Shown here one piece after another: positions 4,385 through 56,208 of a DNA stretch of 64,000 nt. Where the stretch lies: contig CACZUD010000002.1 of assembly GCA_902784345.1 (NCBI GenBank), forward strand, positions 158,183 to 222,182, in the 5' to 3' direction. A program made the position numbers and the translations under genes. The stretch comes from an uncultured Pseudomonadota bacterium. Lineage in GTDB: Bacteria; Pseudomonadota; Alphaproteobacteria; Rs-D84. The notes below the pieces were generated by a model. That model saw only the letters and a list, made by a program, of their open reading frames with translations. It searched no databases and was not told the DNA's origin. Position 1 is the stretch's first letter. Each line of letters opens with the position of its first letter.

Positions 4385-4386
4385 TT

Positions 4387-5034: not shown

Positions 5035-5230
5035 TTGTTTTTTTGAATTGTGTTATCGCAGTATACAATGCGTTTTTATCATTTGATACATCAGAACCAA
5101 TTAATTTTTGTCTGATTTTTTCTTTTGCTTTGTTAAAATCTTGTGCAATTTTTTGCGCGTTCCTATCACGGTCCGATGTCGGATATTTTATAGTTATACC
5201 AAGATGACTTTTTATAAAATCGTCCGGCAT
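5027..5230 (-). CDS. small hypothetical protein (67 aa), 8-nt overlap with downstream gene
   Basis: ORF between gyrB and the HhH-GPD gene on the same strand; Lys-rich, no recognisable motif. Confidence 0.3.
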   Translation of the reverse strand: MPDDFIKSHLGITIKYPTSDRDRNAQKIAQDFNKAKEKIRQKLIGSDVSNDKNALYTAITQFKKTNE

Positions 5231-5246
5231 CTAACCCCTTTTGTTT

Positions 5247-7646
<2,400 letters not shown>

Positions 7647-8318: not shown

Positions 8319-8340
8319 ACGGCGCAGATGCGCCGTTTTT
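8319..8340 (+). terminator. bidirectional intrinsic terminator (acggcgcagatgcgccgt + T5) between convergent genes
   Basis: 8-bp GC stem, T-run. Confidence 0.6.
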
Positions 8341-9409
8341 ACATAAAGACCGAAGTTATTTGTTCTTGCATCTGGAACGTTCCCAAAACAACCCACCCAA
8401 TGATAATAGAAACAAGAATAATTCCGACACTGTTAAGAACACTTGAAATGCTTTCCATTTTACGAACAGATTCTTCCATATAATCATTTGCAATCTGATT
8501 AAGGTTTTTATCAAAATCGTTCATATCTGAGTAAATCATTAAATCGCCAATAATTTCTTCGTTTGGAAAATCTTTACCTGTCATCGCCAACGCGCTTCCC
8601 AGATTTTCACCATTAGCAATATAATGCAGTGTTTCTTCCAAAGTATCTGATAAATATCTGTTTCCTGAATCTGCCAATAAACGCATCGCATCTGGCACAG
8701 AAACACCCGCCGACACCATCGCAGCCAAAGACATCAACCAACTGACCGAAACTTGCAATTTATATGTGTTATACGGTGGAAATCTGTCAAAAAAGGTTCT
8801 GATTCTGCCCGTCCATATTGGTAATGACACCCAAATAAACGCAAACAAACCAACAAAAGTAATTGCTATACCATACCAATATTTGTTTGCAAAATCAGAC
8901 ACCCAAACCAGTGACGCTGCTGTTCCGCGCCAAACAACATCACTGCCTGCGGCTTCTGCCAATGGTGGCACAAGATAAATTCCAACCATAACAATTATTG
9001 CAACTGTTAAAGCGAACAAAAACAACGGGTACGCAACCGCAGACCACATTGCACGCTTTATACGATTTATTCCATTAACAACGCGACCAATATTTTCCAG
9101 TGATATTAACAAACTGCTTACATTACCAGAAGTCAACAAAAGTGTTTCTTCACTTGGTACCCAACCAGATGTCGCCTGGGCAAATGTCATACCACGTTCA
9201 AGATTCTTTTGAATTTCACGCATGGCAATCGCAAATGGTTCATTTGGTTTACGTCCATTATGCGATTCTATCATTTCAATACGATGCAACGCATCCATCA
9301 AAGTAAAATTATTACGCAAAAGCGATGCGATTTTACGCGAAACCGCCATACGTTTTTCAGTATCGGTTTTAAAAACTATTTTTGCATAAAGTAATTCCAG
9401 TTTATTCAT
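8339..9409 (-). CDS. GspF/PilC-family inner-membrane platform protein (TcpE/BfpE/R64-PilR-like size)
   Basis: 356 aa; cytoplasmic N-domain, three hydrophobic TM segments, duplicated T2SSF-like halves; follows the ATPase. Confidence 0.75.
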   Translation of the reverse strand: MNKLELLYAKIVFKTDTEKRMAVSRKIASLLRNNFTLMDALHRIEMIESHNGRKPNEPFAIAMREIQKNLERGMTFAQATSGWVPSEETLLLTSGNVSSLLISLENIGRVVNGINRIKRAMWSAVAYPLFLFALTVAIIVMVGIYLVPPLAEAAGSDVVWRGTAASLVWVSDFANKYWYGIAITFVGLFAFIWVSLPIWTGRIRTFFDRFPPYNTYKLQVSVSWLMSLAAMVSAGVSVPDAMRLLADSGNRYLSDTLEETLHYIANGENLGSALAMTGKDFPNEEIIGDLMIYSDMNDFDKNLNQIANDYMEESVRKMESISSVLNSVGIILVSIIIGWVVLGTFQMQEQITSVFM

Positions 9410-9413
9410 TATC

Positions 9414-11033
9414 TTAATACACCCATGGTCTGTCTAATAAACCAACCCAGCGTTCCAATTCATCAACACCGATTATTCCGCGCAACATTAATTCCGTAGC
9501 CGCTTCTTTCAATGTGCGCCCGTTCATTTTTTCCAACCAATACTTTGTTGCGCCTTCGGTATCGCCAGAAAGAGCCAAACTTAAAAATTCACTGTTCGTC
9601 ATTATAATTTCGCCCGCCTTGATACGACCAATAGTTCCAGAACCTTTACAATGTTCACACCCTGGTCCACGAACAAAAACCTGATTCAACCCCAAATCAC
9701 CAAATGCATCTTTGACACGATTATACGCACCATGATCATGATGATTAATTAATGGTTCACGACAATATGGACAAAGCTTTTTAAACAAACGCATAGACAC
9801 AAGACCGCGCATCATTGTTTCGTCTTTTAATTTGAAAGATTCGACACCCATATCCAATAAACGCGTCAGTGCACCCATTGCAGAATTCGCATGCAGTGTT
9901 GTCCAAACATTATGACCAGACAATGCGCCCTTTACAGTTAATTGCGCCGCAGACAGCGTTCTTATTTCGCCAACCATCAATGTATCAGGGTCGCTTCGCA
10001 ACGCAGCTGCCAATGCTTCTGTAAACTTTTCTTCTCTTTGTTCTTCATTAACCGCATTAACCACCGGCATTTGATGCGCACCAAAAATCTTTTGTTCCGC
10101 AGGATCTTCCACAGTAATAAGATTTATTTCATATCTTCTTTCTTTTAACATCAACGCCATATTACGAACTAATGTGGTTGATTTACCAGATGACGTAGGC
10201 CCCGCAACAATAACCAATCCTGTTGGCGCGGAACGCAATCTTAACAATAATTTTTGTTCGTATTCATTAAATTCTTGTTCTGTTTTGATACCTTCGCTTG
10301 GGTTATCGTAAAGCAGACGCATAACAACATATTGCGAACCGAACGCAATCGGATTGAATTGCATTCTAATGCCCAAAACACCAGCCGGCAAATAAAGATC
10401 TTTTGTCCCACGTAATGGTGTCCGACCATCTTTTTGTGCAGTTTGATATTCGTTTTGTGCATAACTGGAATTTGAAATATCAGCCGATGCAAATGCGGCC
10501 CTTACAAAAGATTCCCCCCACTGTGAATTATATTCCAGAACAGGTTGCATACTGCCATCAATACGGAAATAAATTGTTGTTTGATCTGCAACTTCAATAT
10601 GAACATCTGAAACTTTCTGCGCCGCGGCACGTGCGATTATATCGACAAAATCTTTTTGCATCTGATTATCATAATCGGCACGTGAATGAACTGTTCCGCC
10701 CAATCTTTCATCATTTGTTTTATAGATATTCGATATCAAGCCCAAATCTGAATAAAAAGGTTCTTTGATTGGGCGTTTTTTTTGATGTAACAAATCAAGG
10801 AAAGCCAGCACGCGTCCATCATAACGATGTGTTCGCGATATTATAATCTCGCCACCAGAAAAATACGCAATCAAACTCTGCGTATCTTTAGGCAAAGCCA
10901 ATTCTGATGTATACGCAGTTAACAAACGATTATTATTTGCAAACAAGTAATCGATAATATCTTTACTGTTCGCGTTTTCCAAACCGCTTGGTATAGATTG
11001 TTGATTTGAAAAAATATTTTCAGTGTTTGACAT
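9414..11033 (-). CDS. GspE/PilB-family secretion/pilus assembly ATPase
   Basis: 539 aa; Walker A GPTSSGKST, Asp box ITVEDPAE, Walker B DTLMVGEIR, His box VWTTLHANSA, tetracysteine CPYC...CEHC. Confidence 0.9.
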   Translation of the reverse strand: MSNTENIFSNQQSIPSGLENANSKDIIDYLFANNNRLLTAYTSELALPKDTQSLIAYFSGGEIIISRTHRYDGRVLAFLDLLHQKKRPIKEPFYSDLGLISNIYKTNDERLGGTVHSRADYDNQMQKDFVDIIARAAAQKVSDVHIEVADQTTIYFRIDGSMQPVLEYNSQWGESFVRAAFASADISNSSYAQNEYQTAQKDGRTPLRGTKDLYLPAGVLGIRMQFNPIAFGSQYVVMRLLYDNPSEGIKTEQEFNEYEQKLLLRLRSAPTGLVIVAGPTSSGKSTTLVRNMALMLKERRYEINLITVEDPAEQKIFGAHQMPVVNAVNEEQREEKFTEALAAALRSDPDTLMVGEIRTLSAAQLTVKGALSGHNVWTTLHANSAMGALTRLLDMGVESFKLKDETMMRGLVSMRLFKKLCPYCREPLINHHDHGAYNRVKDAFGDLGLNQVFVRGPGCEHCKGSGTIGRIKAGEIIMTNSEFLSLALSGDTEGATKYWLEKMNGRTLKEAATELMLRGIIGVDELERWVGLLDRPWVY

Positions 11034-11036
11034 TAT

Positions 11037-11705
11037 TTATTTTCCAATACTTAAACTTTCTATTTCACCATCTTTTTCAAAAATAATACCATCATTCAAA
11101 GAAATTGATTTAACAATATAACCATCTAATTCTTTACCAACAGCAATACGTCTGTTTTGACCAGTTGCAACATCTTCGATAGTCGCTTGTAATTGATTAC
11201 CCATACCAATAACATTTATCAATTTATATTTTTTATTAACATCTGTTTCAACTTTCTTTTCTGGTGCTTTTGCAACAGGTGCAGGTTCTTCATCCAGCGC
11301 AGCCATTTGACGTTTTAAATTTTCTGTTTGGATATCCAACTGGGTTTTTGCGGCTTCTAATTCGTGTTGTTGTTGTTCTGCGCGTCCCGAAAGAGTATCT
11401 AATTCCATTTGCAATTTAATTTTTTCTGCATTTAATCTTTCCAAATCTAAATCTAGTTGCGCACGTTCTTTTTCTAATTGTACAACAACCTTTTCCTGTT
11501 CCAGCATTGTTATTTTTTCAAACAACGAACCATTTTCATTATAATTAAGCAGCGCGTCTGCAGACATTTTGTCCGCAGAATCAAAATCAGATACACTTTC
11601 TTCAACAATTTCTTCTTCGACATAATCATCATACGCAAAAACCGACTGGTTTACACCAATCACAAACAAAGAAACTATCATTATCAAATTCAATTTTTTC
11701 AACAT
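11037..11705 (-). CDS. secreted coiled-coil protein (position of BfpU/TcpS/PilP in type IVb pilus operons)
   Basis: Signal peptide MLKKLNLIMIVSLFVIGVNQSVFA; ~80-aa heptad-rich segment LEKERAQLDLDLERLNAEKIKLQMELD; C-terminal beta-rich domain. Confidence 0.5.
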   Translation of the reverse strand: MLKKLNLIMIVSLFVIGVNQSVFAYDDYVEEEIVEESVSDFDSADKMSADALLNYNENGSLFEKITMLEQEKVVVQLEKERAQLDLDLERLNAEKIKLQMELDTLSGRAEQQQHELEAAKTQLDIQTENLKRQMAALDEEPAPVAKAPEKKVETDVNKKYKLINVIGMGNQLQATIEDVATGQNRRIAVGKELDGYIVKSISLNDGIIFEKDGEIESLSIGK

Positions 11706-11716
11706 TTTTTGCCCTT

Positions 11717-12991
11717 TTATTTTGTATAAATAATTACTTCATAATTCCAAGTCCTTGTATTAGCACGCCAAGAAACAGATGTCATGTAAACACCCTGAAA
11801 ATCTTTAAAAGCATACATAAATTCAGATGGTATTAATTTTGAAGAAACCGCAACTTCTGTTACATGAACAGTTTCGCTTATGCCGTTATTCAAAATTGTA
11901 TCCGAAACATTGTTTATTTCTGCACGCGCCCCTATTTGTTGAAAAACACTGGCAATATCACGCGCAGCACTTATTGGATCGCGTTCATCTAACGAAGAAT
12001 ATGTCTTTAATGTTGGTAATTTAACACGAACGATAACTTCATCTTCTGATGTTTGTTGAACAACAGCCCCCGGCATTAATTCGCCACCAATTTCATAAAA
12101 ATCGTTCAGTGTTCCAAAATCCCGCATAAACGTCGCAGACACATATTCCCCATCACACTTTGCAAAAGTCTGATTCCAACCTGCGATTGGCTGCATAACA
12201 AAAGCGATTGCTTTATAGCATAAATTTGCACGTTCCATTACATTTGGCAAATTATCATATGGATATTGGAAAGACTGTACTGCTGCTTCTTGAGCTAATT
12301 TTTTATCTAAAATTTCTTGTTTTTTTAATTCTATTTGTTTTCTGTATTCGTTTGCCAACTCTGTATTTAAATTTACACCTTTATCAGATGGTGTTTTTAT
12401 TGGATTGCTTAAAATATAAAAACCGAACAAAACAAACAAAACGGCCATCAACAACGACGGCAACACCGCTTTCAAGAAACAAAATGGACGCAAACGCGCG
12501 ATATTACTATTTTTACCAATCAAATCAGATATATCTTTTTCTTGCGATTTGGGCATACCCCAACTTGCCGGCGCAATTAAAAGCCCCCAATCTGGCAAAG
12601 CAGAAAGTTCTGTATACGCTTTGCGTGCATCTTCTTGTTTTTCAAACAAAATATCACGAATAATAATTCCGTTTCTTACTGCGACAAGATAAAAACGATT
12701 ATTGACATTGAATACCGCCAAAAAAGAAATAAATTCTGATAAAGACTCTGCAATTTGTGCTGCCGCACTTTCGATACCTGTCTTTGCACCATCATAAGAA
12801 GATCCTACCCCAACCATAGATCGATATTCTGTAAAATAGCATCTTCTTTTACTTCCTGATTTAGCCAATTCTTTTGCGGCACTGCGTGCTGTATTACCAA
12901 CCCGCAGGGGCTGCCAAAAAAGCCCTGTTGCAAATTTTTTATGACGAACAGTTATGATTTGTTTTATCAATCTCTCTCTCTTTATGTGCAT
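11717..12991 (-). CDS. bitopic inner-membrane protein (BfpC/TcpD/PilO/GspL-like topology); start uncertain
   Basis: ~200-aa cytoplasmic domain, single TM FLKAVLPSLLMAVLFVLFGFYIL, ~220-aa periplasmic domain. The ORF track N-terminus (to 13075) runs through the upstream gene's terminator, so the start is placed at ATG 12989-12991. Confidence 0.5.
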   Translation of the reverse strand: MHIKRERLIKQIITVRHKKFATGLFWQPLRVGNTARSAAKELAKSGSKRRCYFTEYRSMVGVGSSYDGAKTGIESAAAQIAESLSEFISFLAVFNVNNRFYLVAVRNGIIIRDILFEKQEDARKAYTELSALPDWGLLIAPASWGMPKSQEKDISDLIGKNSNIARLRPFCFLKAVLPSLLMAVLFVLFGFYILSNPIKTPSDKGVNLNTELANEYRKQIELKKQEILDKKLAQEAAVQSFQYPYDNLPNVMERANLCYKAIAFVMQPIAGWNQTFAKCDGEYVSATFMRDFGTLNDFYEIGGELMPGAVVQQTSEDEVIVRVKLPTLKTYSSLDERDPISAARDIASVFQQIGARAEINNVSDTILNNGISETVHVTEVAVSSKLIPSEFMYAFKDFQGVYMTSVSWRANTRTWNYEVIIYTK

Positions 12992-13034
12992 TATAGCACA
13001 AATAGATAAAAAAAATAAAGACGAAATTTGTACT

Positions 13035-13060
13035 AAAAAAGTCGTATTTCTACGACTTTT
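13035..13060 (-). terminator. intrinsic terminator after lipoprotein gene (gtcgtatttctacgac + T-run on minus strand)
   Basis: Hairpin 7 nt downstream of the stop at 13063. Confidence 0.55.
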
Positions 13061-13062
13061 CA

Positions 13063-13377
13063 TTATTTTTGACAATTATATACCTTTACTTTGAATTTAA
13101 AGGTTTTATCTGGGCCAAAAAACGTATCTGGAATTTCTGTAATATCCTGTTTTACAATGTAATAAGAATCACCTATTTTTTCTTGTTCCAATATGCTTTT
13201 TTCCAGATATTCATATGCATCTGATAATTTATAATTTTTAACATTGGAATCCAGAGTATATAAAAATTCACAATTTTTTGGTTCATTATCTAATCTAACC
13301 AAACCAGAACCAGCATCTGTGGATGTTGCACACCCTGCCAATACAATCAAAGACGATAAAGTTAAAATTTTTTTCAT
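13063..13377 (-). CDS. small lipoprotein (104 aa)
   Basis: Lipobox LAGC at the signal peptide end; two further Cys. Confidence 0.5.
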   Translation of the reverse strand: MKKILTLSSLIVLAGCATSTDAGSGLVRLDNEPKNCEFLYTLDSNVKNYKLSDAYEYLEKSILEQEKIGDSYYIVKQDITEIPDTFFGPDKTFKFKVKVYNCQK

Positions 13378-16198: not shown

Positions 16199-16813
16199 CT
16201 AATCAAAACATTTTTTCAGTGTTTCGCCACTGTCATTCAAATCAACATGTTTGTTGCGGATTTCTTCATCTGCCCGTATTTGTTGTTTAAGTAAAACAAT
16301 ATCAGGATGATTTTGTAATTCATTATTTAATTTATCAATAGCAAATTCTATATCTTTTTCATTTTTTACGAATATCGGAACGATTGAATTTGCGGCATTT
16401 TGTACAGATTTTTTAAATAAATCTTTGTTGTCTTCTATAACAGATAAATAGGCCCTTATATGTTCGTCTTCATGTTGCAGTATCGCATTATAAGAACAAG
16501 AATTTGGTCTGTGAGATATATCTATTTGAACCAGAAAATCCGAATACCCTATCGTCGTATCTATATTTTTCAAAGACACACAAAAACCGTCTTCTATGGA
16601 AGTTATATCTGCTGTTATTTCAAATTCATCGACCAGTGTTGCTACTACATTTCCATGTAAAACATCCATTTTTTGTAATGGTTGAACAACACTTTTCGTC
16701 CAAACAGGCACATTTATTGTAACTTCAGGGTTTAATTTATAATTTAAACAATCGTCCCCCGCAAATGCATCTGAAATAAAAAACGATAAAAATATATAAA
16801 TAAATTTTTTCAT
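16199..16813 (-). CDS. secreted HExxH protein (DUF922-like putative Zn-dependent peptidase), paralog B
   Basis: Signal peptide; HEDEH motif; ~30% identical to the upstream paralog (shared C..YK.NP, G.C.SL..ID, SC.Y, PIF.K.EK, KLN blocks). Confidence 0.55.
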   Translation of the reverse strand: MKKFIYIFLSFFISDAFAGDDCLNYKLNPEVTINVPVWTKSVVQPLQKMDVLHGNVVATLVDEFEITADITSIEDGFCVSLKNIDTTIGYSDFLVQIDISHRPNSCSYNAILQHEDEHIRAYLSVIEDNKDLFKKSVQNAANSIVPIFVKNEKDIEFAIDKLNNELQNHPDIVLLKQQIRADEEIRNKHVDLNDSGETLKKCFD

Positions 16814-16815
16814 TT

Positions 16816-17454
16816 CTAATCTATAACTATATCAGAATTTTTCATTTTTTTATAAAAATCATCACATTTCCAAATATGATAGCTGTCGCCACGTTCATCT
16901 ATTTTTTTATTTTCCAATGTTAATTCTTCTACTATATCTGATTTAATTTTTTCAACAAAATCACTTTTATTTAATTTTTCAGAAAAATCAGGCACTTCTT
17001 TTTCAGATTTTATGAATATTGGTTTAAAATCTTTTGCGCCATCTTTCACAGATTTTTTTATCTTATCAAGATTAGATTTTATCACATTTTTATAAACATT
17101 TACATGATCTTGTTCATGTCTATAAACTATATCATACGCACAAGATTTTTCTTTTAATCTTTTATCTATTATAACATCAAAATCTTCAATAATTTCAATA
17201 TCAATACCACGCAAAGATGCACAATATCCGCCGTGTACAGGAATTATTACCGTATGCGCCATGGCACTGTACGACATCTTTGGTTCTGTATAACCCAACT
17301 TTCCAACCATTTCTTTATCTGATTTTTGAGTTTTAACATCTTTAATGTTTAATTTTATATCAACATCTGGATTATATTTATACTTTGAACAATCATATGC
17401 AAAAGACATATATGGTGAAAACACAAATAACAAAAAGATTATTTTCTTAAACAT
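16816..17454 (-). CDS. secreted HExxH protein (DUF922-like), paralog A
   Basis: Signal peptide MFKKIIFLLFVFSPYMSFA; HEQDH motif. Confidence 0.55.
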   Translation of the reverse strand: MFKKIIFLLFVFSPYMSFAYDCSKYKYNPDVDIKLNIKDVKTQKSDKEMVGKLGYTEPKMSYSAMAHTVIIPVHGGYCASLRGIDIEIIEDFDVIIDKRLKEKSCAYDIVYRHEQDHVNVYKNVIKSNLDKIKKSVKDGAKDFKPIFIKSEKEVPDFSEKLNKSDFVEKIKSDIVEELTLENKKIDERGDSYHIWKCDDFYKKMKNSDIVID

Positions 17455-17494
17455 ATTGTTATATTGTCTGCTTTTTTAATATTCTGCAACAAAA

Positions 17495-18532
17495 TTATTT
17501 TTTATCTATTTCAGATAAATATTCTTCATACATAAAATCCCAAATGTTCACATATTTTTTACAAACCCGTTCATAATTATCCAAAACAGCCGGTAATCTG
17601 CGTTTATATTCTTCTGGGGTGCACATCTTTAAAACTTGTTCTATATCTGATTCTGTTGTTATTTTTATTATGCCATCTGGGTTAAAGAATTGATCTATTT
17701 CTGTCGCACCAAGATATATTGGAATACATTGGTTTGCCAGTGCTGTTGTAAATCTTTCTGAAAAATAGTATTTATTCACGTCATTTTCTAAACAAATACA
17801 AAACATATAATCGCGGTAAGTATCTGATAATTTTTCTACACGTGGACCACCATCAAAATTACCAAAAGTATCGCATAAATGTTCTTTTTTACACTTTATT
17901 GCTAAATTGTACCTGAATTCGTGCAGTGAACACATACGTTTATCAGAAGAAATAAAAGAACAAATTTTACTTTTGTGTTTATACATTTCTGGTTCACATG
18001 GTTCGTCCCAAATACCAGCAGCAAAAGGAACAAATCTTGCATTCGGGATTGTGTCTAAAATCTTTGAAGAATATGTAAAAATATAATCAAACTGTTTATA
18101 TAAATCGGGATATTTTTCAAATATTTTATAATCTTCTGGGACAATAGATTCAGATTCTACAAACATACCAAATTTATGTTTTGGTTTTCCCATTGTTTCC
18201 AACATGGCATCATTAGTGTAAAAATGCATATCTAACCCAATATTAAATTTATCCCATATAAAATATTTTGATGCTTCGGCAGAACAATAATCAAAATGTC
18301 TATCGCGCAGGAAAAAAGTCCGCATTTTTTTTCCATCTTTATTATAAATATCTGGTTCTTTATTACTTGGTAAAATCGCAAAATTATAGTAAGGAAAAAA
18401 TAACTTGCCATACAACGTTTTAACATAACGATGTTTTTCACTGGTGTTATTTTTATAGCTCGCGATTTTTATACCACATAAATATACGTGTACACGACCA
18501 TTTGTGCCTATTTCTTTTTTTAAAAATTTCAT
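17495..18532 (-). CDS. GT10-family alpha-1,3-fucosyltransferase-like glycosyltransferase
   Basis: DYMFCICLENDVNKYYFSERFTTALANQCIPIYLGATEIDQFFNPDGIIKI matches the alpha1,3-FucT motif of H. pylori FutA (KFNLCFENTQGYGYVTEKIIDAYFSHTIPIYWGSPSVAKDFNPKSFVNV). Confidence 0.65.
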   Translation of the reverse strand: MKFLKKEIGTNGRVHVYLCGIKIASYKNNTSEKHRYVKTLYGKLFFPYYNFAILPSNKEPDIYNKDGKKMRTFFLRDRHFDYCSAEASKYFIWDKFNIGLDMHFYTNDAMLETMGKPKHKFGMFVESESIVPEDYKIFEKYPDLYKQFDYIFTYSSKILDTIPNARFVPFAAGIWDEPCEPEMYKHKSKICSFISSDKRMCSLHEFRYNLAIKCKKEHLCDTFGNFDGGPRVEKLSDTYRDYMFCICLENDVNKYYFSERFTTALANQCIPIYLGATEIDQFFNPDGIIKITTESDIEQVLKMCTPEEYKRRLPAVLDNYERVCKKYVNIWDFMYEEYLSEIDKK

Positions 18533-18641
18533 TAAAAAACTCTTTTATTATTCCAACATAATTTAAGTATGGGAATAATTTTCTATAATATCAAGCAGAA
18601 AACCGCCAGTATAAAAAATTCACAGATGTCGGTAAGTTCTA

Positions 18642-21056
18642 TTACATTGTTTGCTTTTTTAAATATTCTGCAACAAAGTTATTTCCATATGTTTTATAAA
18701 GTTCTTCGGCCAATAATACAGATGAACGTCCGGATTCAAATAACTTTAACATATTTCCCAAACCACCCAATTCAGTATTTAAAATCACAGATTCCCCGTT
18801 AACAGGACGTGATAATAATACCGCACGTTTAAGATTTGGATATGCCTGACCTTTGATAAATGCCATTTCCAGTGGATTTAAATTCCATTTTTCATAATCA
18901 CTGGTATCTGCCGCAGGATTACGGAAGAATAATACAGTCTGTGCCTGACCACGAACAACATCACCTATCCCAAGTTTATCAAGAACATTTGCACGTTGGA
19001 AAGCAACCATATATGCCTGACGATTTTTACGACCTTCTTGAAGTCCGGCTATGAAATTATCGCGAAACATTTTATTTTCCAACATTGGTGCTGTTTCATC
19101 AATCATAATAAGTGAAGGATTTCCGCCGGATACAGTTACATTATTTATTCTGTGTAATATATAAGATATAACAGCCGGCGCCAATACTTCATCTTGCAAA
19201 ATTTCTGTAAAATCAAAAGTTGTTAAACGCGCACCTAAATCAAGAGTATCTGCTTCTTCATTAAATATGTCGCCATATTGTAATGGATCAACCCATTTCT
19301 TTAATTCGGCGCGCATCGGGCCACTGGATGAAAAACAGCTTTCATAAAGATTCTTTAATAACCTGTCTTTATCCTGCAGATAATCAAAGTTAACAGATAC
19401 AGCACGTGCAATTTCATCCATTGATTCTGCATCATTAATATTGGTTATCATTGAAAACCATCTGCGTAAAAATGCACGATTACTGCTACTATCTGGCATT
19501 TTCAGAGGATTCAAATGTGTTAAAAATGCGTCACTACTTGCATCTTTTTCTTTGCCATTCATTGTTATATATTTACCACCAACAGCCAGAGTAAATATTT
19601 CAGCCCCCTTGTTTCTGTCAAAGAAAAACGCTTTTAACTTTTGATAACGTAAAGATTGTGCAATAAGGAACGAGAACAAAGTCGTTTTACCACCACCAGT
19701 TGGACCTATGGTCAGGGTATGACCAACGGCTGCCGGTTTATCAGAAACATGAAATTGAAATTGATATGGTGTTCCTTGGGCTGTTGGGAAAACAACAATT
19801 GGACCCTGACCCCAATCACTGTCCTTAACACCAGTTGGCATAGATGACAACGGTATACTTGTTGCAGCCGTCTTTGATAACATTTTAAATATTCTTGGAA
19901 ATACATCAAATCCAGGTAATTGAGCAAAAAAGGACACTTTTGATGCAAAAGTTTCAACAACTGGTGATATACCAAATGAAGCAGATATTTTCTTAAATTC
20001 ATCAACATATTCATTTAATTCTTCTATACTTTTACCAAACAACATAAACAAAGGATAATAATCAACCAATGTTTGATTACCAGTTTGATTTTCATCCATT
20101 TGATTTTGTGCTTCACTTATTTGTTCAAGTGTAGATTCTTCTGTTTCATCGGTAATAGTTGAACGATGTTGACGCATCAGTGTTTCAATATCACTTGATT
20201 GTAAAATATGAAAAGCATTCATACATATCATTTCACATTGAATAGTTGAAACAGTATCAAAAAATTCTTCATCCATATAATCAGGCGATATTTTAAAAGA
20301 AAGTGCAGCAGCATAATATTTTTTATCACCACTGGTATATTCAATTACACCGTTTTTCATAAATTCAACATTATCAACACATACTAAATTTGATATATTT
20401 TCGTCACATTTTTTTATTATCGGCTTTGATACAGGTGACAAAATTCTACCAAAGAAAGTTGCCATATTATCGATATTATTATTTCTTAACAATATTGGTT
20501 TATATGCAGATAATATAGATTCAACATAATTACAACACTGATTTAATTTTTCACGATTATTTTGACCATGAACAGAAACAACAACATAATAATTATTAGA
20601 ATAAATCTTTAAACCTTGATTATTCCATTTATCATATATTTTCTGCAAAGTTGGCTGATCAAATTCATAATCTGTTTTTTGGTCTATGAAATCACGAATT
20701 GTAAAAAATCGCAGACAAACATCAGGATCTTGAATTTGATTAAATAATTGGGCACGCAAATCCAGCATTTTTTCACGATTTTTATCACTCATCATACTGG
20801 TTTGTACACCTTTTATTTTATAAACACGAACCAAAGATCCATCATCAATCGATAAACTGTCATCACTGTAAACGGCATTGAAAGGTAAATAATCGGAATA
20901 TTTTGTATAACCAAATTTTGGAAAAACTTTCTTTACAATTGTTGGTATATAAGCCAACAAAACCAAAAATACCAGAACAACAGACATTGCTATTATAACC
21001 AAAGTCAATGTCATAGAATCTGTATTTCCTGCAAAATAATTAAATAATCTTTCCAT
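18642..21056 (-). CDS. virB4: type IV secretion system ATPase VirB4/TrbE family
   Basis: 804 aa; N-terminal TM; Walker A TIGPTGGGKTT; CagE_TrbE_VirB-type C-terminal domain. Confidence 0.9.
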   Translation of the reverse strand: MERLFNYFAGNTDSMTLTLVIIAMSVVLVFLVLLAYIPTIVKKVFPKFGYTKYSDYLPFNAVYSDDSLSIDDGSLVRVYKIKGVQTSMMSDKNREKMLDLRAQLFNQIQDPDVCLRFFTIRDFIDQKTDYEFDQPTLQKIYDKWNNQGLKIYSNNYYVVVSVHGQNNREKLNQCCNYVESILSAYKPILLRNNNIDNMATFFGRILSPVSKPIIKKCDENISNLVCVDNVEFMKNGVIEYTSGDKKYYAAALSFKISPDYMDEEFFDTVSTIQCEMICMNAFHILQSSDIETLMRQHRSTITDETEESTLEQISEAQNQMDENQTGNQTLVDYYPLFMLFGKSIEELNEYVDEFKKISASFGISPVVETFASKVSFFAQLPGFDVFPRIFKMLSKTAATSIPLSSMPTGVKDSDWGQGPIVVFPTAQGTPYQFQFHVSDKPAAVGHTLTIGPTGGGKTTLFSFLIAQSLRYQKLKAFFFDRNKGAEIFTLAVGGKYITMNGKEKDASSDAFLTHLNPLKMPDSSSNRAFLRRWFSMITNINDAESMDEIARAVSVNFDYLQDKDRLLKNLYESCFSSSGPMRAELKKWVDPLQYGDIFNEEADTLDLGARLTTFDFTEILQDEVLAPAVISYILHRINNVTVSGGNPSLIMIDETAPMLENKMFRDNFIAGLQEGRKNRQAYMVAFQRANVLDKLGIGDVVRGQAQTVLFFRNPAADTSDYEKWNLNPLEMAFIKGQAYPNLKRAVLLSRPVNGESVILNTELGGLGNMLKLFESGRSSVLLAEELYKTYGNNFVAEYLKKQTM

Positions 21057-39559: not shown

Positions 39560-40237
39560 ATGGCAAAGTCGAAAATAACTCTTACACCGGATATTTATTT
39601 TGCAAATGTGTGTCCCACATTAAATATGAATATCCGGTCTGAATTGTATTCGACTAATGAATTTACTTTTGCAGTGGCGGTGATTTTATCGGCGCAGGCC
39701 ACTGATAAAAAAGTTAACGAAGTAACCCCAGAACTTTTCAAGATTGCCCCAACACCAGATAAAATGTTGAAACTGGGCTTGGACGGATTAAAAAAACATA
39801 TACGTGTTATATCTTTCTTTAATAACAAAGCAGATAACATAATAAAATTATCAACACAATTAAAAGATAAAAACAGTGACGATATAAATTATAAATTTCC
39901 AAAGAAATACCATAATCGCGTTGAGTTAATGAAACTGGCAGGTGTCGGTCAAAAAACAGCGAACGTGATAATGAATGTACTTTGGAACGCCCCAAATATC
40001 GGGGTTGATACACATGTTTTTCGTAATGCACATCGGTATGGTTGGGTTGGCATGGCAGAAAACACACCTGAAAAAGTCGAAGAAAAACTGTTAAAAATAA
40101 TCCCACAAAAATATCATGCGATTGTAAATCATGTAATGGTTTTGCATGGACGATATACTTGCAAGGCGCTTCGTCCAGACTGTGAACATTGTCCGGTCGC
40201 AAAATGGTGTAATGCATCAGAGAAAAACATACTATAA
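39560..40237 (+). CDS. nth: endonuclease III
   Basis: LSAQATDKKVNEVTPELF, HhH LAGVGQKTANVIM, VDTHVFRNAHRYG, 4Fe-4S C-x6-C-x2-C-x5-C. Confidence 0.9.
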   Translation: MAKSKITLTPDIYFANVCPTLNMNIRSELYSTNEFTFAVAVILSAQATDKKVNEVTPELFKIAPTPDKMLKLGLDGLKKHIRVISFFNNKADNIIKLSTQLKDKNSDDINYKFPKKYHNRVELMKLAGVGQKTANVIMNVLWNAPNIGVDTHVFRNAHRYGWVGMAENTPEKVEEKLLKIIPQKYHAIVNHVMVLHGRYTCKALRPDCEHCPVAKWCNASEKNIL

Positions 40238-40268: not shown

Positions 40269-41159
40269 ATGAAAATGATAAAAATATTATTTTTTTTGCC
40301 GTTATTTTTTACATCAATATCGTACGCTGCTGACACGTGTGAGTATGAATATGTTGTTAGTGATTTACGACAAAATTGCACAGGGATAAATGCAGAATTA
40401 CAGGAAATAAAAACTTACGGGACAGTTAACACAATTGTAACAGGCGCTGGTACTGTTGCGGCGGGTGGTGCGTTATACGCCGGTATAAAAAAGAAAGATT
40501 TGGATAAAAAAGCCGAAGAATTGGCTAAAAAAATGGAAGACATAGAAAATATGTCTGATTCTGAATTTGTATCTTTCCTTAAAGAAATGGCGCAGTATCA
40601 AGAATTAAAAGAACAATATGACGATTATGAAGCGCAATCAAAAAAACTAGGAAATGTTCGCACTGGTTTAATGGTTGGAAACACTGCAACTGCGGTTGCC
40701 GGAACGATAATTTCTGCCAAAAACAAAAAAGATTCAGATTCAATTAAAGATATGATACAAAAATGTTTGAACACAATAAAAAACAACGAACAAAAAATTG
40801 GTCAATCAATGATTGATTGCAGTCGTGAAAAATATGAAAAATTAAAAAAAGCGGCATCAGAATGTAGAAGCCTTAGCACAGAAAATATGGAAAAAGTATC
40901 AAAACACAATAAAGTATCTACAATAGTTTCTGGGGTTAATATCGGAACGGGGACCGCAGGGGTGATAACATCTGCACTTGCAAACAAAAATCAATATGAT
41001 CAAAAAACAAAAAATCTGAATACTGCGGCAAATGTGTTATCTGGTACATCTATGGTTGCTTCTGGTGTTTCGACAGTATTTAATGCAACGACATTAAAAT
41101 CTATTAACAATAATTTACGCGCATCAGAGGCATGCGAAAAGGCATTAAGTGAATTATGA
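40269..41159 (+). CDS. secreted Cys-containing protein with four Gly/Ala/Thr-rich glycine-zipper-like segments
   Basis: Signal peptide MKMIKILFFLPLFFTSISYA; segments TGAGTVAAGGALYAGI, GLMVGNTATAVAGTII, VSGVNIGTGTAGVITSALA, SGTSMVASGVSTVF separated by K/E-rich helices; 6 Cys. Start moved to the internal ATG; the ORF track start overlaps nth. Confidence 0.55.
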   Translation: MKMIKILFFLPLFFTSISYAADTCEYEYVVSDLRQNCTGINAELQEIKTYGTVNTIVTGAGTVAAGGALYAGIKKKDLDKKAEELAKKMEDIENMSDSEFVSFLKEMAQYQELKEQYDDYEAQSKKLGNVRTGLMVGNTATAVAGTIISAKNKKDSDSIKDMIQKCLNTIKNNEQKIGQSMIDCSREKYEKLKKAASECRSLSTENMEKVSKHNKVSTIVSGVNIGTGTAGVITSALANKNQYDQKTKNLNTAANVLSGTSMVASGVSTVFNATTLKSINNNLRASEACEKALSEL

Positions 41160-42088
41160 CAAAGACATTGTTTGTATTTTTATTATCTTTATTTTCATTG
41201 AACGCTTTTGCGGGATACGGTGGTTATATTGGTACACACGATAATCGCAGATATGGATCTTTGTCAGAGCCCGAATATAATGGTATGGTAAAATTAATAT
41301 CGAGAAATGTCGTAAAAGGTACTGGTGTTTTCATATCTAAAAATGTGGTTTTGACAAATAACCATTGTGTGGCTGCATGCAGAAACGGATGCGAAGCAGA
41401 ATTTTGGAATGGTTCTGAATACGAAAGATCAAATTTAACAGTACTTGAATATAATGACAAAGCAAAATTGTCTGACGGCACAGATTGGGGGTTGTTGCTA
41501 TCTGATAAAGATAGTAATTTTTATAAACAAATTGCCCCAGTATCTACGACAGGTCAGGTTCAACGTGGCGGATACGGAATTTTGCGTGTAATAGAAGACG
41601 AAGAAATACCTTTTCTAAGGGGGCTGTACACAAAAATAATAAAAGAAAATAAAGAAGAATGTGGTAAAACTTCTAATGCAGTAGAATGTTTTAATAAACT
41701 GGTTGATAAAAAATTAAAAGAATTAGGAAAGCAACAATTGTTTAAAGACGGGGATAATTTTAAAGTTCAAACTTGTAACATTGTTGGCGATTCACAAAGA
41801 AGTAATAAAATGCTTAAAACAGATTGTGATAGTTCTGGCGGAGATTCTGGTGCACCATTGTTGCGTAACAATGTAATTATTGGATTAAATAATGGCGGTA
41901 TGCAGTCGGTTTTCGGCGAAAGTATAGCCAATGCAGAGGCAATAAAAACAGAAAATTTTTATATGCCTGCCCAAATATTTATAAATAAAAATAAATATGA
42001 GAGTGCAGTAAATTTTGATCAAAAATATATTACTAATGAAAATAAAGAAGATGTTCTTGGACCCGTTAAACCAGATTCTTTGCGATAA
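41156..42088 (+). CDS. secreted trypsin-like (S1 fold) serine protease
   Basis: Signal peptide; His LTNNHCV, Asp DWGLL, Ser GDSGAPL in chymotrypsin order; ATGA overlap with upstream gene. Confidence 0.8.
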   Translation: MTKTLFVFLLSLFSLNAFAGYGGYIGTHDNRRYGSLSEPEYNGMVKLISRNVVKGTGVFISKNVVLTNNHCVAACRNGCEAEFWNGSEYERSNLTVLEYNDKAKLSDGTDWGLLLSDKDSNFYKQIAPVSTTGQVQRGGYGILRVIEDEEIPFLRGLYTKIIKENKEECGKTSNAVECFNKLVDKKLKELGKQQLFKDGDNFKVQTCNIVGDSQRSNKMLKTDCDSSGGDSGAPLLRNNVIIGLNNGGMQSVFGESIANAEAIKTENFYMPAQIFINKNKYESAVNFDQKYITNENKEDVLGPVKPDSLR

Positions 42089-42097
42089 TATAAGTTA

Positions 42098-42128
42098 TAA
42101 AAACACCGGCAAATGCCGGTGTTTTTTT
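42098..42128. terminator. bidirectional intrinsic terminator A5-caccggcaaatgccggtg-T7
   Basis: Same hairpin family as 35904-35937. Confidence 0.7.
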
Positions 42129-42139
42129 ATAATCTTTTG

Positions 42140-42215
42140 TGGTGCCGGAAACAGGACTTGAACCTGCGACCCCCTCATTACGAATGAGATGCTCTACCAA
42201 CTGAGCTATTCCGGC
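42140..42215 (-). tRNA. tRNA-Thr (anticodon CGT)
   Basis: Revcomp GCCGGAATAGCTCAGTTGGTAGAGCATCTCATTCGTAATGAGGGGGTCGCAGGTTCAAGTCCTGTTTCCGGCACCA. Confidence 0.8.
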
Positions 42216-53048: not shown

Positions 53049-54266
53049 TTATTCGTATCTTAAACTGTCTATTGGATTTAATTTTGCAGCTTTGATTGCG
53101 GGCATAACACCTGATGCCAAACCAACAACAACCGCAACAGATACAGATAATATCACCGGCCAAATTGAAAATGGCACATCATAGTGTAATATAAATCGCC
53201 CTATTCCTTGGGATAAACCAACGCCCAAAACTAATCCAATCATGGAACCAATAAAAGATATCATTACAGATTCAGATAAAAATTGAATTATTATCATGCG
53301 TTCTTTTGCGCCTATTGCTTTGCGAACACCGATTTCGCGTGTGCGTTCTGCAACAGAAGTTAACATCATATTCATAATACCGATAGACCCAACCAAAAGC
53401 GATACTGCTGCGATTGCTATCAACAATAATTTCAGATAACCTGTTACAGTATTCATAGTTTCCATAATTTGTTTCATGTCCGTAATTATAAAATCGTCTT
53501 CGTCGGTGTCTTTAAGGCGGTGCCGCTGACGCAAAAGAGAAGTAATTTGCTCGATAACCACATTGTTATCAGAATCGTTGTATATTTTCAGGGCAATCAT
53601 TGTAACAGCATCTGGAAATTTAGAACCTTGTAATCTCTTTTTTAATGTTGTAATTGGAATTATAATCATATCGTCTTGTGAACCGAATGCAGAATCGCCG
53701 CGTGCCTTCATAACACCAACAATCACAAAAGGCATATTTTGAATACGAATTATTTCACCGACTGGGTTTTCTGGCAGCCCTAATTCAACCGCAGTATCTG
53801 GGCCAATCACTGCATAGGTTGCTGCATTTTTTACTGCGTTTTCATCAAAAAAAGTTCCGTATTCAACATCTATGTCTTGTATCGCGGCATAATCAGGCGA
53901 TACGCCTAAAATCATAGTCGACCAATTTTTGTTTCCATATATAACTTGGGAATTTCCCATTTGCGCTGGGGACACATAAGTAACGTCGCTTAATCTTTTG
54001 ATTTGTTCGCTGTCTGTTATGGTAAGTGTTTGTTTGTTGCCAGTGCGAACACCCCCAGTGCGTGCGGCACTGGCACGCACGACGATAGTATTTGTTCCAA
54101 GCGAAGAAAACTGGTCTGTGATAGATTTTTGAACGGTTTCTCCAACGGCAACCATTATAACAACAGCCATAACACCGATAATAATACCAAGAACCGTCAG
54201 GAACGATCTTAACTTGTTCCCACTTATCGATATCCAAGATTCTTTTAATATGTCGCCCAGTGTCAT
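53049..54266 (-). CDS. MacB/FtsX-type ABC transporter permease
   Basis: 405 aa; N-terminal TM, large periplasmic domain, 3 C-terminal TMs. Confidence 0.85.
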   Translation of the reverse strand: MTLGDILKESWISISGNKLRSFLTVLGIIIGVMAVVIMVAVGETVQKSITDQFSSLGTNTIVVRASAARTGGVRTGNKQTLTITDSEQIKRLSDVTYVSPAQMGNSQVIYGNKNWSTMILGVSPDYAAIQDIDVEYGTFFDENAVKNAATYAVIGPDTAVELGLPENPVGEIIRIQNMPFVIVGVMKARGDSAFGSQDDMIIIPITTLKKRLQGSKFPDAVTMIALKIYNDSDNNVVIEQITSLLRQRHRLKDTDEDDFIITDMKQIMETMNTVTGYLKLLLIAIAAVSLLVGSIGIMNMMLTSVAERTREIGVRKAIGAKERMIIIQFLSESVMISFIGSMIGLVLGVGLSQGIGRFILHYDVPFSIWPVILSVSVAVVVGLASGVMPAIKAAKLNPIDSLRYE

Positions 54267-55009
54267 TTTTTATGCCGTTTTTCTGAATTTAACAATGTTG
54301 TTTCGCTTTTAGGCACAGGCCCATCGTATGTAACGCGCCCATCAAAAATATGTATAATGCGTCGTGAATATTGGGCGATTTCAAATTCATGGGTAATCAT
54401 AATTATTGTAATGCCCATTTCTTTGTTTAATTTTTCAAAGAATTTTAAAATTTCATTACCCATTTTGGAATCAAGTGAACCAGTGGGTTCGTCCGCCAAT
54501 ATCAATTTAGGATTGCCGGCTAATGCGCGCGCTATCGCAACTCTTTGTTTCATACCGCCTGATAATTGTGGTGGAAAATAAGTTTCAAATTGTTCCAATC
54601 CAACAAGGCGCAACATTTCGCGTGCACGTGTTATTCTGTCGTTCATAACCCAACCACGATACATTAACGGCATCATCACATTGTCCAATATTGTGCGTTT
54701 TGTAAGCAGATTAAAATTTTGAAAAACAAAGCCGATATATTCATTACGAACGGTTGCTAAATCGTCCGCGGTCATTGTGCTTATGTCTTTGTCGTATAAT
54801 TCGTAAGTCCCAGATGTTGCGCCATCCAATGCACCGATTATATTCATACATGTTGATTTGCCAGAACCGCTGGGGCCCATAATTGAAACGAATTCACCGC
54901 TTTTAATTGTAAAATTTATATCAAACAAAACTTGTTGTGTTCCACCGATACTAAGTGGGAAACTTTTATTAATGTTGTTCAAAACAATAATGTTAGTTTG
55001 ATTTTTCAT
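54263..55009 (-). CDS. ABC transporter ATP-binding protein (MacB/LolD-like)
   Basis: Walker A GPSGSGKST, signature LSGGMKQRVAIARAL, Walker B ILADEPTGSLD. Confidence 0.9.
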   Translation of the reverse strand: MKNQTNIIVLNNINKSFPLSIGGTQQVLFDINFTIKSGEFVSIMGPSGSGKSTCMNIIGALDGATSGTYELYDKDISTMTADDLATVRNEYIGFVFQNFNLLTKRTILDNVMMPLMYRGWVMNDRITRAREMLRLVGLEQFETYFPPQLSGGMKQRVAIARALAGNPKLILADEPTGSLDSKMGNEILKFFEKLNKEMGITIIMITHEFEIAQYSRRIIHIFDGRVTYDGPVPKSETTLLNSEKRHKK

Positions 55010-55011
55010 TT

Positions 55012-56208
55012 TTACATTCTGGGGCGTATCTTGTCGCCTTTGTTGGTTGTTTTTTGACCGGTAAAGCCGACAATGATTTTGTCGTTTTCTTTAATTTCAT
55101 CAGATATAATTTGTGTTTCGGTTGGTGTTGCGATTCCGCGTTTGTATGGAATAAAAACAATGTCTTTATCGCGCTTTATAGCCAGATGTGTTTTTGGTGT
55201 AATATCATCACTGACATTATCTATAATATTTTTATACGAACGAATTAACAGACCTGAATTTTTTGTTTTCCATGTGTCTTTGGCGTTTGCTACGACCACT
55301 GTTACAAATGCGGTCATGCCGGGCATAAGTTTTAAATCAGAATTATCTACATCAATCACAACAGTATACACAACAACATTTGAAACAGTTGTTGGGGATA
55401 ATCTTATTTGTTGAATGTTTCCCTTAAAAACCATATTCGGATAAGCGTCCACAGTAAAAGTAACTGGCATACCATCTTTTATCATACCAATATCTGCCTC
55501 ACTTACAGCGGTTTCAATTTGCATTTTTGATAAATCTTCGGCAATTTCAAAAAGGTCTGGCGTTTGAAAAGATGCCGCGACAGTTTGGCCTTTATCAACT
55601 TTTCTTGAAATAACTGTTCCATCAACAGGCGATGTGATTGTTGCATAACCCAAATTTGTCATCGCGCGTTCGTACGCATATTGTGCTTTGTTAACGGCCT
55701 GTTGTGCTTGTTCGTATACTGTTTGCGATTTTTCCATTTCTGCACGTGAAATAAATCCATCATGGTATAAAGATTGGTTTCTGTTATATTCGCTTCGTGC
55801 ATATTTTAATTCAGATTTCATTGAATCCAGAGAAGCCTTTGCTTCATCAACAGTTGATTGTAAAACAGAAGGTTCTATGGTTAATAAAACATCGCCTTTT
55901 TTAACGCGCGAATTATAATCAACAAAAATATCTTCGATAGTGCCAGAAACTTGTGATCCCACACTGATGGTGTTTACAGGTTGTATTTCGCCAGTTGCTG
56001 TAACACTTTGTGTTATATCACCACGCGTTATGTCCATTGTAATATATTCTTTTTTCTTGGAAGAACCAAATGGACACAGCCACCAACAAAGCAATCCTGC
56101 AACAATGATAATTATCGCAAACCACCATTTATTACGCCAAATATAATTCCAGACCCTTTTTATAAAGGATGGTTTTGGTTGTGGTGTAATATCTTGCTTT
56201 TCTTCCAT
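55012..56208 (-). CDS. HlyD/MacA-family periplasmic adaptor (membrane fusion protein)
   Basis: N-terminal TM, coiled-coil hairpin, beta-barrel/lipoyl domains. Confidence 0.8.
   Translation of the reverse strand: MEEKQDITPQPKPSFIKRVWNYIWRNKWWFAIIIIVAGLLCWWLCPFGSSKKKEYITMDITRGDITQSVTATGEIQPVNTISVGSQVSGTIEDIFVDYNSRVKKGDVLLTIEPSVLQSTVDEAKASLDSMKSELKYARSEYNRNQSLYHDGFISRAEMEKSQTVYEQAQQAVNKAQYAYERAMTNLGYATITSPVDGTVISRKVDKGQTVAASFQTPDLFEIAEDLSKMQIETAVSEADIGMIKDGMPVTFTVDAYPNMVFKGNIQQIRLSPTTVSNVVVYTVVIDVDNSDLKLMPGMTAFVTVVVANAKDTWKTKNSGLLIRSYKNIIDNVSDDITPKTHLAIKRDKDIVFIPYKRGIATPTETQIISDEIKENDKIIVGFTGQKTTNKGDKIRPRM

Follow-up and report, generated by a model that had tools for sequence, protein, structure and literature searches.

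A putative polymorphic two-gene cassette joining a constant glycine-zipper protein to variable secreted partners in uncultured Alphaproteobacteria

Polymorphic toxin and effector cassettes such as cdiB-cdiA-cdiI combine a constant upstream gene with a polymorphic exported partner, in which a shared N-terminal module is followed by variable C-terminal enzyme domains. In phage holin-endolysin cassettes and in holin-dependent (type 10-like) secretion, the gene of a helical membrane-active protein overlaps a downstream gene for a wall enzyme; holins are small, have no signal peptide and carry strongly hydrophobic transmembrane segments. Glycine-zipper proteins, among them those of the Pfam families Gly-zipper_Omp, OmpA and YMGG, the Rickettsia 17-kDa antigen, VacA and Caulobacter CdzC/D, are built on helices of the GxxxG/AxxxG type, CdzC/D being short proteins that a type I system exports. 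Here we describe a locus that has something in common with each of these groups. It lies in a stretch of 64,000 nucleotides (the window) from contig CACZUD010000002.1 of an uncultured alphaproteobacterium of the lineage Rs-D84, and consists of two overlapping genes on the plus strand, gene A for a glycine-zipper protein and gene B for a secreted serine protease of trypsin fold. Judged from the sequences of the pair and of its relatives, the locus is one copy of an undescribed, lineage-specific two-gene cassette in which A is constant and the secreted partner varies. What is new is an unannotated polymorphic family of carrier-plus-enzyme cassettes, broader than a single operon, with A having no known relatives and B belonging to the known peptidase family S1. 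For A we favour, tentatively and with somewhat less than even confidence, the role of a membrane-active carrier or anchor for polymorphic lytic enzymes; the complex with the partner, the location of A, its insertion and its role are all inferred.

Gene A (40269..41159) encodes 296 amino acids (aa) and a stop codon, and was defined by its open reading frame (ORF) and translation, 203 homologs and a family profile. Gene B (41156..42088) encodes 310 aa and was identified from its matches to Pfam Trypsin and Trypsin_2, an AlphaFold2 (AF2) model and the trypsins found as structural matches. The stop codon of A shares the tetranucleotide ATGA (41156..41159) with the start codon of B, an overlap suited to translational coupling that is of the same type in other cassettes. 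An initial annotation of this DNA had described the two genes as a translationally coupled pair, which agrees with the overlap; the signal peptide that it assigned to the first protein is also predicted here, while the length of 297 aa that it gave includes the stop codon.

The partners of A were surveyed in 80 GTDB loci and one long metagenome contig, which together held 83 full-length A ORFs from other genomes. A downstream partner on the same strand was found in 78 of the 83, and in 75 of these 78 the partner gene overlapped or abutted A (-32 to +1 nt, mostly ATGA); in the common class with an overlap of -22 nt, an in-frame Met yields the ATGA overlap seen in the window. The five ORFs with no partner were all near contig ends. 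The pairing of A with B is not due to chance, as the two genes adjoin and overlap in cassettes from dozens of genomes, among orthologs and paralogs alike. In compact genomes neighbouring genes often overlap slightly, and two unrelated neighbours might do so for that reason; this explanation is effectively refuted by the comparative data, since 78 of the 83 family members are paired, the two genes move together (they are inverted jointly in the locus L083) and Cys features of the two proteins co-vary. The recurrence also settles a point on which the initial annotation had made the link depend, that the two genes co-occur in related genomes.

All partners inspected begin with N-termini resembling signal peptides, and they belong to at least 11 unrelated families. 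Trypsin-fold proteases of several subfamilies occur in 25 cassettes, and Cys-rich proteins of 857-1095 aa, with no match in Pfam or NCBIfam, in 20. Six cassettes encode proteins of 294-332 aa with an NPGN(L/I)R domain that matches the N-terminus of phage Gp29 (9vvp_L, E-value 2.2e-6) and, weakly, an endolysin (7q47_A, E-value 0.046); five encode Tlde1-like proteins (PF10908, E-value 1.1e-5, 26.3 bits, below the cutoff of 30.1), five a glucosaminidase (Pfam E-value 1.8e-8, above the cutoff) and four proteins of 397-475 aa. Five classes of two members each and singletons make up the remainder. No conserved third gene was found, as no family of downstream genes occurred in more than 4 of the 78 cassettes and the flanks were diverse housekeeping genes. 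Several genomes hold three or more cassettes, some of them in tandem. The frame of a protein with its own protease, in which the initial annotation had seen the locus, holds for the window and is too narrow for the family, in which proteases make up only about one third of the partners; with other proteins in the majority, the protoxin with activating protease that it had proposed is unlikely as a general mechanism. Its other two proposals, a protease with its inhibitor and a surface system, may hold as special cases of the inhibitor or immunity and the carrier or anchor models weighed below.

In the ~1000-aa, endolysin-like and glucosaminidase partners the signal peptide is followed by an N-terminal module that is homologous among the three classes (E-values of 7e-8 to 7e-5 in the first iteration of a hidden Markov model search), and the protease partners do not have it. 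The search was made on mature sequences; with signal peptides included, the matches of the proteases were confined to residues 1-50. A shared N-terminal module on three non-protease classes would, by analogy, follow the usual logic of polymorphic exported effectors. Some further arrangements were noted among the surveyed cassettes. Two cassettes of different partner classes lie close together in the same genome in L001 (5676-9937), L030 (4245-8003) and L005 (2106-7955), and in L013, L043 and L047 the gene of the partner protease has another protease gene behind it. The ~1000-aa partners (e.g. L025 6948-10115) have a Cys-rich N-terminal half and Gly/Ala-rich hydrophobic segments of their own (e.g. 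...GLGAAAIGAGVAGLGVGAALLIGGAG...).

The search for A itself identified 203 homologous clusters at 90% identity when it was seeded with words, and a profile of A recovered 477 clusters at 50% identity with E-values of at most 1e-3, 237 of them at 1e-30 or below; tblastn against GTDB species representatives gave 300 places. All these relatives come from metagenome-assembled genomes of uncultured Alphaproteobacteria from rumen, faeces and termite gut, many of them named Candidatus Enterousia, with the closest (82%) in UBA2947. The sequence of A had no match in Pfam, NCBIfam or the Protein Data Bank (PDB), and a PDB search with a profile of 62 members gave nothing better than an E-value of 0.09 (the transmembrane region of APP and F-BAR proteins). 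The known glycine-zipper families PF13488, PF13436, PF13441 and PF05433 were not listed for A at E-values up to 1, and none of the four was among the 25 Pfam families that recurred most often across the 62 homologs; the identity with a known glycine-zipper or OmpA-like family that the initial annotation had named as telling against its view was not found. DUF4231/SLATT, P5CR_dimer and OspE did recur in the Pfam scan of the 62 members, always weakly and below threshold, and were treated as compositional. In the literature that was searched on Enterousia, on Rs-D84 and on glycine zippers with hydrolase effectors, no description of the family was found. It therefore appears to be undescribed, without annotation or known relatives.

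Searches with tblastn in 50,697 phage genomes gave no match to A, and a phage origin was ruled out on that ground. Two matches in IMG/VR lie in a host-like context beside prophage genes. On the IMG/VR contig L086, which resembles a prophage with a host flank, a 135-aa phage-type protein (1021-1428) carries the motif RNNNPGNIR and the same domain as one partner class; an A-family gene and its class-5 partner (4004-6306) lie ~2.6 kb away. No A-like domain was found within the partner proteins at E-values up to 10. Four members of the A family (P0271, P0274, P0275 and P0290) are ~580-640 aa long and have two or three matched stretches each, which suggests that these double-length proteins are tandem-duplicated carriers.

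Protein A is predicted to have a Sec signal peptide (aa 1-20, 40269..40328) that is cleaved after SYA, from its sequence pattern and from n-, h- and c-regions conserved in the 62 homologs; its N-terminus, MKMIKILFFLPLFFTSISYA|AD, resembles those of cleavable Sec substrates, as judged by eye and from the N-termini of homologs. A lipoprotein was ruled out, because there is no lipobox. In the homolog alignment four glycine-zipper helices stand out, namely G1 (aa 51-73, 40419..40487, invariant G61, A68 and G72), G2 (aa 127-150, 40647..40718, motif LGNxRTGLMxGNTAT, invariant G128, R131 and G133), G3 (aa 217-238, 40917..40982, invariant S221, G231 and S235) and G4 (aa 254-276, 41028..41096, invariant N255 and N272). 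G1 and G2 are joined by a charged helical hairpin, loop12 (aa 74-126, 40488..40646), which in the window is without a 7-aa Cys segment present in orthologs, and G2 and G3 enclose the central part of a Cys-bearing helical head (aa 151-216, 40719..40916, with C166, C184 and C199). In the 62 homologs charged residues occupy 52 of the 5387 alignment cells of the four segments (~1%), which also contain most of the invariant positions of the protein and have their small residues at a/d-like spacing. The glycine-zipper character that the initial annotation had given to this protein is borne out by these near-uncharged segments, as are their number and the six Cys (positions 24, 37, 166, 184, 199 and 289); the segments are about 22 aa long and not ~18 aa. 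C37, C166, C199 and C289 are invariant in the 62 homologs, the extra pair of C24 and C184 co-occurs in the clade of the window, and in another clade a CxxGGC motif is conserved within loop12. Simple sums on the Hessa scale for the segments were +3.6 to +6 kcal/mol, too weak for an ordinary Sec stop-transfer helix.

The AF2 model of A is all-helical, with an overall predicted local distance difference test (pLDDT) score of 66.7. The Cys head (aa 26-45, 160-205 and 280-296) was modelled at pLDDT >90, its central part being the most confident of the model, and four long helices cross the glycine-rich belt at pLDDT 50-60, helices 1 and 2 being prolonged as loop12. Fold searches with this model gave nothing significant, the matches being helical bundles of a general kind and, in part, alpha-pore-forming toxins, with template modelling (TM) scores <0.3; toxins of the ClyA/Hbl/Nhe/AhlB type matched at E-values of 0.1-0.5 in this range of TM scores, to a model of mean pLDDT 66.7. 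These matches bear on the possibility of a binary toxin, in which A would be a secreted alpha-pore-former or translocator and the partner its cargo or, in the window, a protease that activates A. Such a toxin would account for A being a secreted bundle of helices, with glycine-zipper hairpins of marginal hydrophobicity, and for the enrichment of alpha-pore-forming toxins (Hbl, AhlB, MakE, NheA) among the non-significant fold matches. It would also fit with the Lys content of A (33 Lys) and the predicted cleavage by B after Lys or Arg, and glycine zippers are reported to mediate effector translocation (PMC10240207). We nevertheless consider a binary toxin quite unlikely, given that the fold matches have TM <0.3 and E-values >0.05, that activation by the partner cannot be general when most partners are not proteases, and that a covalent tether to the cargo would be atypical.

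Evidence that A and its partner meet came from the Cys residues of the two proteins. In the clade of the window, the C-terminus of most proteases reads ...Q(D/E)F(D/E)CD-COOH, preceded by a low-complexity linker, and their A proteins have a single Cys in loop12 (...SMCQMKH...). The loop12 Cys and the C-terminal (D/E)CD tail were found together in all seven verified adjacent ortholog pairs, and 13 further ortholog pairs, in which the two proteins were matched solely through the length of their contigs, agree. Joint loss was found in three groups. In the window, L003 and P0001-3, the 7-aa segment of A is deleted and B ends in ...KPDS(L/I)(R/P); in P0010/P0136 the Cys of A is replaced by Ala and B is truncated at 293 aa; and in P0021/P0145 the Cys is replaced by Asn and B is truncated at 295 aa, the genes of the latter two pairs being adjacent and overlapping. 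No discordant pair for the loop12 Cys and the protease tail was seen. Joint loss of the two features therefore occurred on three independent occasions, one of them in the lineage of the window, and the simplest reading is that the two Cys form an intermolecular disulfide, or at least that the two proteins share a complex. Since the lineage of the window has lost both, its protease is probably bound non-covalently or released. A similar ending was noted in the 397-475-aa partners (L062 1176-2510; L068 6939-8132; L086 4954-6306), the C-terminus of which lies in or near ...EFxFDD(I/V)C(D/N) and resembles the FDCD tail of the proteases; the cognate A proteins have no loop12 Cys.

The same residues have a bearing on the compartment in which A resides. 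Co-variation with the tail of a Sec-exported protease places loop12 outside the cytoplasm, and the head, which follows the signal peptide and contains the invariant Cys and the C24/C184 pair, would be outside as well. With the CxxGGC motif and the single Cys in loop12 on one side and the Cys of the head on the other, both sides of the belt look oxidising and non-cytoplasmic, and belt ends that are both extracytoplasmic argue against an ordinary four-pass topology in the inner membrane. Such a topology, with the N-terminus outside and A serving on the periplasmic face as a scaffold for the cell's own wall-remodelling enzymes, would be suggested by four uncharged helices of ~22 residues with flanking Lys, Arg and Asn, would bring the four invariant Cys to one side, and has a weak parallel in the two-transmembrane DUF4231/SLATT matches of 14 of the 62 members (best 3.6e-4). 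It would leave loop12 in the cytoplasm, against the co-variation and against the CxxGGC motif found elsewhere, and the insertion sums of all four segments are positive. A cleavable signal peptide before a multi-pass protein is unusual, and several cassettes, some with ~1000-aa partners, would be much for housekeeping in a genome of <1 Mb. We regard an inner-membrane scaffold as very unlikely.

A-family clades follow partner class, and this observation, together with the Cys co-variation, which indicates an intimate association, could equally be expected if A were a cognate periplasmic inhibitor or immunity protein that is made first and keeps the enzyme inactive until export, with a variable head that gives specificity. 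The partners are potentially harmful to their producer (glucosaminidase, Tlde1-like, endolysin-like and a protease without a propeptide), A is encoded upstream and translationally coupled, and no other candidate immunity gene adjoins the cassette. The breadth of the family speaks against this role, since immunity proteins against unrelated folds are normally unrelated to each other and here one family would serve at least 11 partner families, of which 20 members are the ~1000-aa Cys-rich proteins with no recognisable enzyme domain. Moreover, the best-conserved part of A is the uncharged glycine-zipper belt and not a binding surface, and in the protease clade it is the tip of a long, flexible tail that is linked and not the catalytic domain. 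A cognate inhibitor or immunity protein is in our estimate somewhat unlikely.

The role of carrier or anchor, which we prefer, can be drawn as the following series of events. A would be exported by Sec and folded into an all-helical, disulfide-stabilised protein, the weak hydrophobicity of which would allow it to escape from the inner membrane, and its four uncharged helices would form a membrane-type belt between the Cys head and loop12. It would bind the co-translated partner in a specific complex, covalently in most protease orthologs, where the C-terminal Cys at the end of the flexible linker would reach the loop12 Cys, and would escort the enzyme across the periplasm. The belt would then enter a membrane both faces of which are non-cytoplasmic, either the outer membrane of the cell itself or the membrane of a partner cell, and the lytic enzyme would be displayed or released outside the cell, where bacteria that depend obligately on partners could employ it on neighbouring cells. 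As the peptidoglycan of the producer lies behind its own outer membrane, wall hydrolases at the surface would need no immunity gene, which would explain the missing third gene. A bolder form of this proposal, which we hold to be unlikely, makes A a new alpha-helical anchor and translocator of the outer or target membrane, and the cassette a minimal Sec-dependent two-gene device for display or secretion. Such a carrier would capture the C-terminus or the N-terminal module of the cargo in the periplasm and bring the cargo to the surface, and the weak hydrophobicity of its helices would let them pass SecYEG with no trapping in the inner membrane.

Several points weigh against the role of carrier or anchor. 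The location of A and its entry into a membrane, like the route of the partner across the outer membrane, are inferred only, and alpha-helical outer-membrane proteins are rare in bacteria. AF2 was weak in precisely the glycine-zipper helices (pLDDT 50-60), and the fold searches had no significant match. The Cys co-variation amounts to three loss events in one clade and could be explained by a shared third partner, while the window pair itself has no Cys link. The agreement of A clades with partner class suits a cognate inhibitor equally well, and a type IV pilus or type II secretion system (T2SS)-like gene cluster in the window could export enzymes without A.

The partner in the window, B, has a predicted signal peptide (aa 1-19, ...LNAFA|GYGG, 41156..41212, from sequence pattern and alignment), after which the conserved mature domain begins directly, so that there is no propeptide. 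It matched Pfam Trypsin (PF00089) with an E-value of 3e-10 (40.7 bits, cutoff 20.6) and PF13365 (Trypsin_2) with 35.5 bits (cutoff 27.6). The catalytic triad consists of His70 (41363..41365) and Asp110 (41483..41485), both invariant in 43 homologs, and Ser231 (41846..41848) in the motif GGDSGAP, conserved in at least 90% of the 43, in agreement with the secreted S1-family protease with an intact triad that the initial annotation had described. The AF2 model (pLDDT 87.3, predicted TM score 0.82) has a double beta-barrel fold with a C-terminal helix and a helical insertion of 42 aa (148-189, 41597..41722) that carries C169 and C178, two of the seven Cys of the protein, and was recognised from the AF2 secondary structure and the alignment. 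In Foldseek the top matches of the model were trypsins, one of them bacterial (E-values of 9e-12 to ~1e-11, target-normalised TM scores of 0.72-0.74). With profile, triad and fold all present, B belongs to peptidase family S1 (PA clan), of which it is a new and divergent member. A V8-type (S1B) glutamyl endopeptidase was rejected, because its PDB sequence matches were marginal (E-values of 0.004-0.2) and the structural neighbours of B are trypsins (S1A). The motif D225-S-S-G-G-D-S231-G-A-P is in register with D189-S-C-Q-G-D-S195-G-G-P of trypsin, so that Asp225 (41828..41830, invariant in the alignment), six residues before the Ser, would take the position of Asp189 at the floor of the S1 pocket, which suggests that B may cleave after Lys or Arg. 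B resembles trypsin (S1A), including the enzyme of Saccharopolyspora erythraea, in its chymotrypsin fold, its His/Asp/Ser triad and the Asp at what is, by motif register, the equivalent of position 189, and differs from it in an identity of ~12-15%, the 42-aa helical insertion, the C-terminal helix, the absence of a zymogen propeptide and the coupling to A.

The genes around the cassette are housekeeping genes, ileS and then nth (39560-40237) on the 5' side of A, and, on the 3' side of B, a tRNA-Thr(cgt) gene on the minus strand (42140-42215) followed by a GIDA-family (mnmG-type) gene. A hairpin between an A-run and a T-run (42096..42129, inverted repeat I6) has the features of an intrinsic terminator (free energy of folding -19.9 kcal/mol, z -7.05); it was not reported by a scan for consensus terminators and was revealed by direct folding. 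It is probably bidirectional and would end both convergent transcripts, that of B (plus strand) and that of tRNA-Thr (minus strand). The position between nth and tRNA-Thr, near a terminator, had been given correctly in the initial annotation. The cassette L083 3836-5787, with an A that is 76% identical, occupies the same tRNA-Thr/nth locus and is inverted as a unit with respect to its flanks; a search for inverted repeats flanking the window cassette that might explain this inversion found only the terminator palindrome.

The window has a G+C content of 36% and encodes LpxC, LpxK, PagL, PBP2, RodA and MreC, from which the organism is diderm with lipopolysaccharide and peptidoglycan. Three other loci, all on the minus strand, were noted. 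The type IV pilus/T2SS-like cluster (8339-13075) comprises T2SSF (8339-9409), a T2SSE ATPase (9414-11033), an unannotated 222-aa protein (11037-11705), the N-terminus of which is hydrophobic and resembles a signal, and an accessory protein similar to PilO (11717-13075), and might serve to export periplasmic enzymes, B among them. The region 16199-21056 begins with the gene for a type IV secretion ATPase of the VirB4/TrbE family (18642-21056). A GT10 fucosyltransferase-like gene (17495-18532) comes next, and then, side by side, two genes (16816-17454 and 16199-16813) whose small products contain Cys, have signal-like N-termini and match nothing in Pfam. The region 53049-56208 has a MacB-type ABC permease (53049-54266) and an HlyD-family membrane-fusion protein (55012-56208) on either side of an ORF (54263-55009), which suggests a tripartite efflux or export system.

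Genomes of Rs-D84, the lineage that contains Enterousia, are mostly <1 Mb and are without a TCA cycle, respiration and standard transporters for sugars, amino acids and peptides, and the lineage has been proposed to consist of obligate symbionts or parasites of other cells (PMC12306168). It is widespread in animal and human guts and is thought to live off other cells (PMC12306168). The similarity of A to proteins from such genomes points to the same order for the window. A genome of <1 Mb that keeps several cassettes, in which the same unannotated putative carrier is paired each time with a different lytic enzyme or large surface protein, makes these cassettes prime candidates for the machinery of interaction with other cells. 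As the constant partner, the A family offers a handle for finding new effectors, which are to be sought in any gene overlapping an A gene at its 3' end. If A does act as a helical outer-membrane anchor or translocator, it would introduce a principle of displaying proteins that is new for diderm bacteria; if it is instead a universal inhibitor scaffold, it would represent an unusual immunity family that neutralises unrelated enzymes.

Compared with the systems described so far, the cassette shares with holin-endolysin modules and holin-dependent secretion the overlap between the gene of a putatively membrane-active helical protein and that of a downstream wall enzyme, and one partner class has the NNPGN(I/L)R domain of the phage endolysin on L086. 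A differs from holins in its 296 aa, its cleavable signal peptide, its disulfide-bonded head and its weakly hydrophobic helices, and the partners in having Sec signals of their own. Like the glycine-zipper proteins, A has GxxxG/AxxxG-type helices as its conserved core; it has no sequence match to them and is much larger, with four helices and a Cys head. The effector-immunity pairs of the type VI (T6SS) and type IV (T4SS) secretion systems (Tlde1-Tldi1; X-Tfe/X-Tfi, PMC10933484) likewise place a wall-targeting enzyme beside a small exported protein, and one partner class is Tlde1-like. In the cassettes described here one A family accompanies many unrelated enzymes, which have Sec signals and not the features that target proteins to the T6SS or T4SS, and no T6SS genes were seen in the window. 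From two-partner secretion (TPS) the cassette is set apart by an all-helical A in place of an Omp85/TpsB beta-barrel, and TPS, POTRA, PAAR, Rhs and LXG domains were not found in A or in the partners tested. Ordinary Sec signals on both A and its partner also distinguish it from polymorphic toxin and TPS loci, and, where polymorphic toxin systems have an immunity gene, none lies downstream in 78 cassettes, B in the window being followed by the terminator and the tRNA gene. With the polymorphic toxin and effector cassettes of the cdiB-cdiA-cdiI kind it has in common a constant upstream gene, a polymorphic exported partner, a shared N-terminal module with variable C-terminal enzyme domains and the presence of multiple paralogous A-partner cassettes in one genome.

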